Source: Gammaproteobacteria bacterium (GTDB taxonomy: Bacteria; Pseudomonadota; Gammaproteobacteria; JABCZS01). Taken from it: a DNA stretch of 64,000 nucleotides. The translations under genes and the position numbers were made by a program. The stretch is from the NCBI GenBank assembly GCA_021773275.1, contig JAJFKJ010000053.1, positions 63,421-127,420 of the forward strand, given 5' to 3'. Under the pieces are notes generated by a model. The model was not told the origin of the DNA, ran no database searches, and saw only the letters and a list, made by a program, of their open reading frames with translations. Positions 53,505 to 55,166 of this stretch are shown here, piece after piece (positions within the stretch are counted from its first letter, which is position 1; each line of letters begins with the position of its first letter).

Positions 53505-55166
53505 ATGAGCACACATAAACGTATTAAAATTTTATCGCCGATATTAGCCAACCAAATCGCGGCCGGTGAAGTGATCGAACGCCCGGCCTCGATCGTGAAA
53601 GAACTGGTGGAAAACAGTTTAGACGCCGGTGCAACGCACTTAAATATTCATCTTGAGCGCGGCGGCAAAAACCTCATCAAAGTGCACGATAATGGTTTAG
53701 GTGTTCACCCTGAAGATTTAAGCCTGGCTTTATCACGGCATGCGACCAGCAAAATTCATGCTCAAGCTGACTTGAGCCAAATTGAAACCTTAGGTTTTCG
53801 TGGTGAAGCGCTGGCCAGTATTGCATCGGTCGCCAAATTAAATATCACTTCAAAACACGGTGAGCATGAGGCGCAATCGGCGTCTGCTTCGGGCCGCGAT
53901 ATGCAGGTAGACATTAAACCTGCGGCACATCCACAGGGCACAACAGTTGAAGTTAAAAACTTGTTTTTTAATACGCCTGCAAGAAAGAAGTTTTTGAAAA
54001 GCGAACGCACCGAGTTTTTGCATGTGGAAGATATTGTGAAGCGCTTGGCTTTAGCCCGACACGATATCGCGATTGATTTTTATCATGATGGAAAGTTGGT
54101 AAAACGTTATGTGGCCGCAAAAGATTGCCCGCAAACACGTATTCAAGCCGGGCTTTCAAAACCCTTCATGGACGCAGCCATCAAAATTAATAACAGGGTC
54201 ACGCAAGTACGTTTGCAAGGCTGGGTAGGAAAACCCGAGTTTGCGCGCTCAAGCAATGACTATCAGTTTTTTTACGTAAATGGCCGCATGGTGCGCGACA
54301 AGGTTATTAATCATGCTGTGCGTTTGGCATACGAAGATAAAATTTACCCGGGGCGTTTTCCCGCTTATGTATTGTATTTAACATGCGAGCCTTCCGCTGT
54401 TGATGTGAATGTACACCCGACAAAACACGAAGTACGTTTTCGTGAGTCGCGTTTAATTCACGATTTTATTGCACAGAGTGTAGCAGACGTATTGGAATTT
54501 CCTGTAGACTCTTGTGTTGAACCTGCCGTAGGGGCGGCATTGCATGTTGCCCGCACGCCTGCAAACACGTGGCGTGATGTCGGCTTGACATCCGACAGGG
54601 TCGCATACAATGCGACCCCTACAATAGAACCTGCCGTAGGGGCCGAACAACATTCGACCCGAAATAATGACAGTATTTCATTTTTCGGCACGCCACTCAC
54701 GTTGCTGGCCAACAAAATTCTCATCACACAACAAAATGATGAACTATTTGCCATTGATTGGTTTAAAACCTTGAGCAACTATGCAGTAGCAACATGGCAG
54801 CAGGCGATCGAGCAACAAATCATCCCATTAACACCTTTGTTACTACCGCTTACTTTGCAAGAGCAAGAATACGGCGTGTATACCGATGCGCTGAAACAGC
54901 TCGGCTTTGAATTACAAATAATTGGCCCTGATCAAAGCATCTTGCGCGCGATCCCCCGCATATTGCAGGGCATGGATGTGCAGACAGCGCTACAGGGCTT
55001 GCAAGCCAGCAAACCCAAAGATCTGCAGCAATACTTTGCAAAGCACTGGGCTGCATCACAGTCTACAAGTTTGCGTGATATCGCTAGAACCTTGCAGGAT
55101 TGCTATGCGTTGTTAGGCAAATCTGGTGTCAAGCACAAGCTATATACCACGCAAAATCTATTATAG
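53505..55166 (+). CDS. mutL: DNA mismatch repair protein MutL; its interdomain linker carries an in-frame mosaic palindromic element.
   Basis: The N-terminal GHKL ATPase (ANQIAAGEVIERPASIVKELVENSLDAGA) and the C-terminal dimerisation region align with E. coli MutL. The linker residues EPAVGAALHVARTP...EPAVGAEQHSTRN are encoded by the repeat at 54519..54661. Confidence 0.9.
   Translation: MSTHKRIKILSPILANQIAAGEVIERPASIVKELVENSLDAGATHLNIHLERGGKNLIKVHDNGLGVHPEDLSLALSRHATSKIHAQADLSQIETLGFRGEALASIASVAKLNITSKHGEHEAQSASASGRDMQVDIKPAAHPQGTTVEVKNLFFNTPARKKFLKSERTEFLHVEDIVKRLALARHDIAIDFYHDGKLVKRYVAAKDCPQTRIQAGLSKPFMDAAIKINNRVTQVRLQGWVGKPEFARSSNDYQFFYVNGRMVRDKVINHAVRLAYEDKIYPGRFPAYVLYLTCEPSAVDVNVHPTKHEVRFRESRLIHDFIAQSVADVLEFPVDSCVEPAVGAALHVARTPANTWRDVGLTSDRVAYNATPTIEPAVGAEQHSTRNNDSISFFGTPLTLLANKILITQQNDELFAIDWFKTLSNYAVATWQQAIEQQIIPLTPLLLPLTLQEQEYGVYTDALKQLGFELQIIGPDQSILRAIPRILQGMDVQTALQGLQASKPKDLQQYFAKHWAASQSTSLRDIARTLQDCYALLGKSGVKHKLYTTQNLL
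54519..54661 (+). repeat. Mosaic palindromic element inside mutL (forward unit, two hairpins, inverted unit, second forward unit), bracketed by a 16-nt direct repeat GAACCTGCCGTAGGGG.
   Basis: GTAGGGGCGGCATTGCATGTTGCCCG at 54528, GGGTCGCATACAATGCGACCCCTAC ending at 54622, and GTAGGGGCCGAACAACATTCGACCCG at 54636..54661. The length of about 135 nt preserves the mutL frame with no stop codons. Confidence 0.85.

Follow-up and report, generated by a model that had tools for sequence, protein, structure and literature searches.

Introduction

Two super-families of repetitive extragenic palindromes (REPs), marked by a GTAG or a CGTC head, were defined by Di Nocera, De Gregorio and Rocco (2013, BMC Genomics 14:522; PMC3733652). 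The same survey recorded in-frame REP dimers and clusters that encode 20–82 aa, often in genes for DNA repair or replication; the repair genes catalogued include uvrABCD, recBCD, polA and dnaE2, and its authors suggested that flexible linkers can accommodate intragenic REPs and that such inserts might favour the emergence of mutators. Here we describe GTAG REPs within the mismatch-repair gene mutL of a Gammaproteobacteria bacterium (assembly GCA_021773275.1, contig JAJFKJ010000053.1, positions 63,421–127,420), the analysed stretch of 64,000 nt being referred to below as the window and numbered from its first letter. By its sequence the mutL element consists of three GTAG-tagged REP units, two forming an inverted heterodimer and the third an adjacent degenerate singleton, and it is probably a tolerated selfish insertion that is translated as part of a linker.

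The mutL element shares with the intragenic REPs of the 2013 catalogue a GTAG head beside a 6–9-bp stem-loop and G–T pairs in the stems, and the catalogue likewise contains head-outside ('HH') heterodimers, structured spacers and trimers in which a singleton accompanies a dimer. The coexistence of GTAG and CGTC types in one lineage, described there for Coxiella, is also found in the clade to which the present gene belongs. Two features are unlike the catalogued cases: in this clade a single linker site hosts three repeat families, and the mutL units have stayed similar in two genomes that have diverged to saturation at synonymous sites. These, together with the mutL instance itself and a linker that is three-quarters REP-derived, are what is new here; mutL is not named in the main text or the accessible supplements of PMC3733652, and no report of a palindromic repeat in mutL was found in literature searches. 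The case is nonetheless an already-described kind of event and not a new element or mechanism, and its novelty is modest. It extends the catalogue of REP-decorated repair genes to mutL and provides a clean, well-controlled example of selfish palindromic repeats becoming protein sequence in an essential repair protein.

The initial annotation of this DNA, made from the letters alone, had likened the behaviour of the repeat to that of the Rickettsia palindromic elements (RPEs). The likeness is sound, but in-frame palindromes are not peculiar to Rickettsia, as the GTAG/CGTC catalogue makes plain (PMC3733652). As far as the account of Ogata et al. (2000) given in that survey goes, RPEs are also selfish palindromes in-frame in housekeeping genes, as here in a probably host-associated bacterium, and their host proteins are thought to be still functional, with the inserts in surface or loop regions as in the MutL case. 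The same account makes RPE-1 longer (about 100–150 nt), unrelated in sequence and resident in an alphaproteobacterial host, and assigns RPE-4 and RPE-6 to the CGTC type. The mutL element is best classed as a GTAG-type trimer of a gammaproteobacterium that is RPE-like in behaviour (in-frame insertion) and probably not a member of an RPE family.

In the system of REPINs (inverted REP doublets) and REP-associated tyrosine transposases (RAYTs) described by Bertels and Rainey (2011, PMC3116915), the repeated unit is, as here, two inverted REPs ∼90 nt apart, singletons resemble dimer remnants, and persistence within lineages is long and vertical. REPINs are, however, described as extragenic and their arms pair in one long hairpin, whereas the arms of the mutL dimer differ in type and are predicted to form separate hairpins. 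QMITE2 of Coxiella burnetii (Wachter et al. 2018, PMC5896051) is another GTAG REP-containing small repeat, found in intracellular gammaproteobacteria of a related group, and it overlaps gene ends including those of the repair genes ogt, recN and ruvB; full-size copies have terminal inverted repeats and direct repeats, unlike the mutL element. QMITE2 overlaps only the last 1–10 bp of open reading frames (ORFs), whereas the mutL REPs lie deep inside an ORF and in its reading frame.

In Escherichia coli and Salmonella, variation in the number of a 6-bp repeat within mutL (ATP-lid indels) switches MutL on and off, and excision and integration of the element SpyCIM1 do the same in mutL of Streptococcus pyogenes. 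The present locus resembles both in that mutL is a recurrent target of repeat or element variation. Unlike these on/off cases, the insert described here is in-frame in the linker and gives no sign of switching.

Three REP units inside mutL

The mutL ORF occupies 53505–55166 on the plus strand and encodes a 553-aa protein with GHKL ATPase, DNA_mis_repair and MutL_C domains (8000 homologs). Unit a (54519–54553, plus strand) comprises a 9-nt 5' extension, GAACCTGCC, and a GTAG head at 54528 that opens a palindrome of the 'GCGGCA' stem type; it reads GTAGGGGCGGCATTGCATGTTGCCC at 54528–54552, or GTAGGGGCGGCATTGCATGTTGCCCG in the 26-nt form at 54528–54553, and its 9-bp stem (GGGCGGCAT/ATGTTGCCC) includes two G–T pairs. 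Unit b (54598–54622, minus strand) is inverted and of the 'GTCGCA' stem type; it reads GGGTCGCATACAATGCGACCCCTAC on the plus strand and GTAGGGGTCGCATTGTATGCGACCC on its own, and is identical at 25/25 positions to an intergenic copy at 27613. Unit c (54627–54661, plus strand), a forward singleton, shares its 9-nt extension and head with unit a but is degenerate, and its core, GTAGGGGCCGAACAACATTCGACCC at 54636–54660, forms a stem with one C/A mismatch. In each case GTAG abuts a palindrome of the form GGG(Y)(S)GCA-N5-TGC..CCC, with 9-bp stems in a and b, which is the anatomy of a GTAG REP, defined by a terminal GTAG or GTRG immediately beside an imperfect palindrome of 20–40 nt.

Units a and b together form an inverted heterodimer with the GTAG heads outside, 95 nt from head to head. 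The arms are of different stem types and are 84% complementary over 19 nt, and the spacer between them holds two hairpins on the plus strand, CACGCC ... GGCGTG at 54554–54576 and TGTCGG ... CCGACA at 54578–54597, whose counterparts in the intergenic dimers are CACGAGC-GACA-GCTCGTG and GCATCGC-GAAG-GCGATGC, respectively. The unit positions proposed initially (a forward unit at 54528, an inverted unit ending at 54622 and a second forward unit from 54636) needed only small corrections.

Membership in a dispersed family was assessed with an nhmmer profile trained on the eight intergenic units of the window alone, the mutL units being left out. Run over the 64 kb, this profile recovers all three mutL units (E = 8.5e-8 for b, 1.9e-5 for a and 6.1e-5 for c), which bears out the central claim of the initial annotation that a member of a dispersed palindromic family lies in-frame in mutL. 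The search for further copies that had been proposed alongside this claim yields, within the same 64-kb window, eight intergenic units, the three units in mutL and no other intragenic copy. In a shuffle control, a 26-mer with at most three mismatches was found 0 times in 100 shuffles, compared with the two occurrences observed.

A direct repeat, GAACCTGCCGTAGGGGC, is present on the plus strand at 54519–54535 and 54627–54643, its copies identical at 17/17 positions and starting 108 nt (36 codons) apart. It had been described as a 16-nt repeat that brackets the insertion. The repeat is there, although it is 17 nt long, and its copies are the heads of units a and c with their extensions and not brackets. 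The 9 nt upstream of the GTAG of unit a resemble the 5' extensions of the intergenic copies (AATCCTGCT, AATCCTACT and GAGCTAAT), so that the 17-nt repeat most plausibly represents two unit heads that point the same way. A target-site duplication was considered and rejected on these grounds, the extension being like that of intergenic copies and the second copy being the head of unit c. A miniature inverted-repeat transposable element was likewise set aside: the sole flanking repeat is this 17-nt REP head with its extension, and the second copy is not host DNA. The perfect identity of the two copies suggests local duplication or homogenisation.

The predicted folding of the element is more stable than that of shuffled controls, both as DNA (−33.9 kcal/mol, z −3.6) and as RNA (−63.9 kcal/mol, z −4.9), the two folds that the initial annotation had proposed. 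The minimum-energy folds consist of four separate hairpins and not of one long hairpin joining the two REPs of the dimer. Such structure might be thought to act as nucleic acid, with hairpins in the transcription unit around mutL (given as amiB-mutL-miaA-hfq) serving as an exonuclease barrier, pausing ribosomes, uncoupling upstream from downstream expression or providing a gyrase or IHF site, and with the peptide incidental. The z-score of the RNA fold speaks for this, as do a conservation of the DNA beyond neutral expectation and the G–U pairs of unit a, which work only on the sense strand (a similar argument was made for REP transcription in PMC3733652). However, no Rfam family was matched by a gathering search of the whole window or by a permissive search of 54400–54800, and a scan of mutL gave no promoter- or terminator-like site in the element. 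Stems of 9 bp would be unwound by translating ribosomes, and relatives carry unrelated repeat families or none at this site. A regulatory role of this kind accordingly seems very doubtful.

A dispersed REP family in the window

In the family to which the mutL units belong, a GTAG head is joined to a G+C-rich stem of 9 bp that closes a 5-nt loop. The family numbers 11 units in 64 kb, eight of them intergenic and spread over five loci, compared with 0 expected by chance. Two of the loci hold a single REP with a small hairpin on the plus strand, at 402–456 (GTAG at 411) and, between efp and epmA, at 45605–45656 (GTAG at 45614). The other three hold inverted dimers: 1886–1995 (heads 1895/1987, 93 nt head to head), 27604–27713 (heads 27613/27705, 93 nt) and 36315–36424 (heads 36324/36415, 92 nt). 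Each intergenic dimer combines one 'GTCGCA' and one 'GCGGCA' stem type around a spacer of ∼45 nt with two 6–7-bp hairpins, and the sequence of the spacer hairpins varies among copies while the pairing is kept. The mutL dimer, at 95 nt, aligns column by column with these dimers of 92–93 nt, both spacer hairpins included, so that inverted pairing around two spacer hairpins is common to all four.

Outside the window, the exact core GTAGGGGTCGCA-N5-TGCGACCC occurs in >120 metagenome contigs (loci L086–L205) with G+C contents of 0.27–0.69, a spread that is unusually wide for one REP stem sequence. No transposase was found in them. A subset of them, at ∼40% G+C, has the same architecture of a REP plus a small hairpin as the window.

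Two further repeat arrangements were observed near intergenic REPs. The intergenic region 27180–27813 is packed with repeats, among them a 66-nt unit with a CCCCCTTTTGTAAAGGGGG hairpin at 27332–27397 and 27545–27610 (95% identical), the second copy of which is directly followed by a GTAG REP dimer; a partial third copy lies at 38468–38496. In addition, a 110-nt direct repeat (288–397 and 1766–1875, 74% identical) forms the 3' ends of two adjacent paralogous ORFs, whose C-termini read ...EEIAEAAQSTLALRV and ...EEVAEAAQSTLQFRV, and a REP follows each.

The MutL linker and its in-frame REPs

Pfam places the GHKL ATPase at aa 25–127 (PF13589/PF02518), the DNA_mis_repair transducer at aa 216–330 (PF01119) and the MutL_C dimerisation domain at aa 399–499 (PF08676), the domain set of a MutH-dependent MutL of the E. 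coli type. The endonuclease motif DQHA(X)2E(X)4E was sought by a motif scan, and no DQH is present anywhere in the 553 aa. The window also contains mutH (4458–5126, minus strand; Pfam MutH, E 6e-31), and given this gene and a MutL without the DQHA motif, mismatch repair is of the E. coli type and directed by MutH, a setting in which the length of the MutL linker is known to count (PMC6902014).

An AlphaFold2 model built with 20 homologs as input has confident domains, with the last N-terminal helix at residues 315–331 and the first C-terminal strand at residue 396, and between them residues 334–390 have a predicted local distance difference test (pLDDT) score of 27–34 and are without secondary structure. 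The stretch encoded by REP DNA, residues 339–386, lies within this disordered segment and between the domains that end at aa 330 and begin at aa 399, in keeping with the earlier placement of the insertion in the flexible linker between the ATPase and dimerisation domains. The reading frame stays open across the element, which has a length that is a multiple of three and no stop codon; the initial annotation was right on the frame but gave about 45 residues, whereas the peptide it quoted is 48 aa long. With 48 of ∼64 residues REP-encoded, three quarters of the inter-domain linker derives from REP DNA. The peptides to be expected from the 553-aa product, which is presumably expressed with its insert, include TPANTWR and VAYNATPTIEPAVGAEQHSTR.

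The phase in which the REPs are read is GTA GGG G.., or V-G-A/V. The GTA frame is free of stop codons in four of the six strand readings of the three intergenic dimers (on both strands of the dimer at 36324, and on the minus strand only of those at 1895 and 27613), and an insertion in that phase should therefore be easily tolerated. Of 103 assessable metagenome copies of the core, 10 are flanked on both sides by 50 or more codons of open frame, and one of these is in a confirmed real gene. It is a PurM-like AIR synthase (Pfam AIRS, AIRS_C) on an unrelated contig (Ga0123353_10689418), in which the copy at 388–412 of locus L099 and its neighbouring unit form a compact in-frame dimer of the same core. 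The phase in which this dimer (VGAAQCAARGSHTVRPL) is read, giving TVGAAQCAARGSHTVRPL, is that of the mutL units. An Mfd-like in-frame copy was discounted, as it is probably upstream of the true start.

There is reason to think that the gene carrying the insert still works. Outside the linker, MutL is 76% identical to its nearest relative (locus L001, protein P0002), and only 34% of 4-fold degenerate sites are identical, which amounts to saturation; on this comparison the protein outside the linker is under strong purifying selection, and mutL is for that reason most likely functional. It could still be supposed that the repeat is a mis-assembly or that mutL is decaying, and indeed the source is a metagenome-assembled genome (MAG), a kind of data in which assemblers may go wrong at repeats. 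Window positions 51656–55173, which span the whole site, are however matched without a difference by a Logan contig from a separate assembly (SRR15505519, 3518 nt), which argues against an assembly artefact, one of the failings that the initial annotation had named as fatal to its claim; the relative, which comes from a different sample, has the same arrangement as well. Decay is at odds with an intact ORF that retains all domains, with catalytic-region columns that are invariant in the alignment of 20 homologs and with the strength of the purifying selection. Artefact or pseudogene is thus highly improbable.

A tolerated selfish insertion would account for these observations as follows. REP units would have entered the linker-coding DNA by the usual spreading of REPs, presumably mobilised by a RAYT-type transposase that acts on single-stranded hairpins, and local duplication or recombination between REP heads could then expand the number of units. 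Only events that kept the frame and introduced no stop codon would have survived. The insert may persist because the linker tolerates it and its sequence hardly matters, and in a clade with short repeat-less linkers (30–50 aa) the added length would at worst be harmless. Re-seeding, gene conversion with REPs elsewhere in the genome as donors, or constraint acting on the DNA might keep its copies REP-like.

It is also conceivable that the REP-derived residues have been exapted, such that they are now needed as linker length for closure on DNA and for activation of MutH past obstacles, and that selection maintains the insert, the repeats then being material from which the linker is built and not passengers. 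Without the 48 REP-encoded residues the linker would fall to ∼16 aa, and without the 108-nt block to 28 aa, compared with a minimum of 30 aa in the clade. In E. coli, 40 of 100 linker residues of MutL can be deleted without a mutator phenotype, but the shortened linker abolishes roadblock bypass (PMC6902014). The arrangement is moreover kept at the same site in the nearest relative despite saturated synonymous divergence. On the other hand, three relatives (P0015, P0012 and P0014) function with linkers of 30–45 aa that have no recognisable repeat, selection on peptide length would not keep palindromes in the DNA, and unit c is decaying in both genomes. Exaptation seems rather unlikely, and toleration of the insert is the reading we retain. 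The locus is a tractable case in which to ask whether the length and composition of the linker matter in a MutL of the MutH type.

Repeats at the same site in relatives

MutL homologs at 47–72% identity define a clade of uncultured gammaproteobacteria with short proteins of 515–599 aa, and the DNA of nine of them was examined. In a comparison of MutL with genome contigs, a 51%-identical MAG is the closest among the matches listed; the best named ones among them are 'uncultured Gammaproteobacteria' and 'Coxiellaceae' MAGs, with Neptuniibacter at ∼42%. The initial annotation had looked to an alignment of orthologs to reveal the segment as absent elsewhere, and this expectation failed: at the corresponding site the nearest relative also has the three units, arranged alike, and others carry different palindromes there.

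In that nearest relative (L001) the order is flank, a forward ('GCGGCA' type), b inverted ('GTCGCA' type), flank and a degenerate c forward, as in the window. The spacer between a and b is only 2 nt, in contrast to the 45 nt with hairpins found in the window, and a 109-nt block is present twice, 106/109 identical and exactly 56 codons (168 nt) apart. CGTC-type repeats occupy the linker in three further relatives. In L002 (P0003) the insert is a palindrome of 87 nt, its 37-nt arms including CGTCATTGCGAG; L084 (P0009) has three tandem 30-nt CGTCATTGCGAGGAGGTACCCC units with an inverted partner, and three more copies of the repeat outside mutL on the 3.3-kb contig; L085 (P0007) has two CGTC units and a degenerate partner. 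CGTC-type palindromes are also found between genes in L084 and, where tsaE meets amiB, in L002. In L003 and L206 the linker contains instead the hairpin GTCCCCTTTGAAGGGGGCAGAC, translated as PVPFEGGRP. This hairpin is part of a third dispersed family, with intergenic members in L206, L208 and L209, and is related to CCCCCTTTTGTAAAGGGGG repeats that occur in the window (at 27334 and 27547) as well as between efp and epmA in L001. Candidate GTAG-headed stem-loops of a less canonical kind are also present in the linkers of L206, L207 and L208, and the DNA of the L209 linker holds no repeat.

At least three unrelated families, the GTAG REP, the CGTC REP and the CCCC-TTT-GAA-GGGG hairpin, are therefore found at the start of the MutL linker, and in all repeat-bearing cases the repeat-derived sequence begins 20–23 residues after a conserved HDF motif. 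Linker length in the clade ranges from 30 to 110 aa (64–110 aa with repeats versus 30–58 aa), a variation that tracks the gain, duplication and replacement of repeats. k-mer sharing between mutL linker and flanks was tested in 86 gammaproteobacterial loci and gave a clear signal only for the window, L084 and L002; L001 and L085 are without signal because their linker repeats lack exact copies in the fetched flanks. For Pseudomonas, Marinobacter, Haemophilus and further genera, the same test gave no evidence that their mutL linkers contain REPs.

Age and upkeep of the insert

The comparison of the window with L001 rests on one genome per lineage and on 64 kb of the window genome. Unit a with its extension is identical at 28/35 positions, unit b at 25/27 and unit c at ∼23/35 (the last counted by eye); a and b are still perfect hairpins, and c is decaying in both genomes. 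The efp-epmA spacer has a GTAG REP in the window versus a hairpin of the third family in L001.

Several observations weigh against a simple account of a tolerated selfish insertion. Identity to the L001 counterparts is 80% for unit a and 93% for unit b even though synonymous sites are saturated; an ancient neutral passenger should have decayed, and re-insertion, gene conversion or selection must therefore be added to the account. The intergenic REP positions differ between the two genomes, whereas the position in mutL is shared. The predicted allele with a 36-aa deletion is absent from a protein collection of 15 billion sequences, in which the MutL cluster has one member. Finally, tblastn with an E. 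coli YafM sequence, a weak test, found no RAYT or other transposase in the window and ∼200 loci (∼2.2 Mb).

The mutL trimer may be ancestral, its REP character preserved by constraint or through gene conversion with other REPs of the genome, or the linker site may have been repeatedly re-seeded with REPs. The locus is in any case dynamic, as the spacer architecture differs between the two genomes and the duplication of the L001 block is recent. It lends itself to the question of whether intragenic REPs are kept by re-insertion, gene conversion or selection.

This dynamism might itself be the function of the insert, if the repeats promote precise in-frame deletion and duplication and the resulting variants of linker length within the population modulate the efficiency of repair. 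Palindromes flanked by direct repeats are hotspots of deletion, and here a perfect 17/17 direct repeat with a spacing of 108 nt surrounds a palindrome. The doubled block of L001 (106/109, exactly 56 codons apart) and the threefold tandem 30-nt unit of L084 are the sort of products that would be expected. The corresponding deletion protein is missing, however, from those 15 billion sequences, and there is no difference between the Logan and NCBI assemblies. All such events are in-frame, so that no on/off switch would result, and in E. coli a 40% shorter linker is non-mutator (PMC6902014). A device for length variation is accordingly quite unlikely.

A bolder proposal would join these elements, such that palindromic repeats have in the beginning of the MutL linker a landing site that is maintained across the clade, the REP DNA is kept by selection or concerted evolution, and in-frame gains and losses tune linker length and with it the efficiency of MutH-type repair. 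We consider this improbable, and if it were true selfish repeats would be a heritable regulator of mutation rate. The rival readings need not exclude the main one. Tolerance of REPs in a linker, with some means of upkeep added, is the reading that we prefer.

Neighbouring genes and other features

Directly after the mutL stop, ∼43 nt (55164–55209) have no counterpart in L001. Their first letters, TAGGCGTCGCA, form a degenerate REP head that shares the TAG stop of mutL, and what lies at the 3' end of the gene is probably the remnant of a REP.

Upstream of mutL, a pair consisting of a ParE toxin and a ribbon-helix-helix antitoxin (50804–51374, minus strand) lies between amiB and a 611-aa ORF and is absent at the same position in L001. 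Two small His/Arg-rich ORFs, MFKSFQKRHQGHRRVK and MQIFTSLVHRHHHRHARRKS, at 51374–51649 precede this 611-aa membrane protein and have a counterpart at 7900–8156 of L001. The conservation of these ORFs and their surroundings in L001 is far above that of the synonymous sites of mutL; they may encode leader peptides or have a regulatory function.

Six ORFs of 464–1384 aa are without a Pfam match (478–1872, 36533–38443, 39731–43885, 51649–53484, 56622–58055 and 58036–60432). Two of the six lie between miaA and hfq and break the usual mutL-miaA-hfq adjacency, as they do in L001. As a group they look like the effector-type cargo of a host-associated bacterium, and Ank/kinase and Sel1-like genes occur near the locus in relatives.

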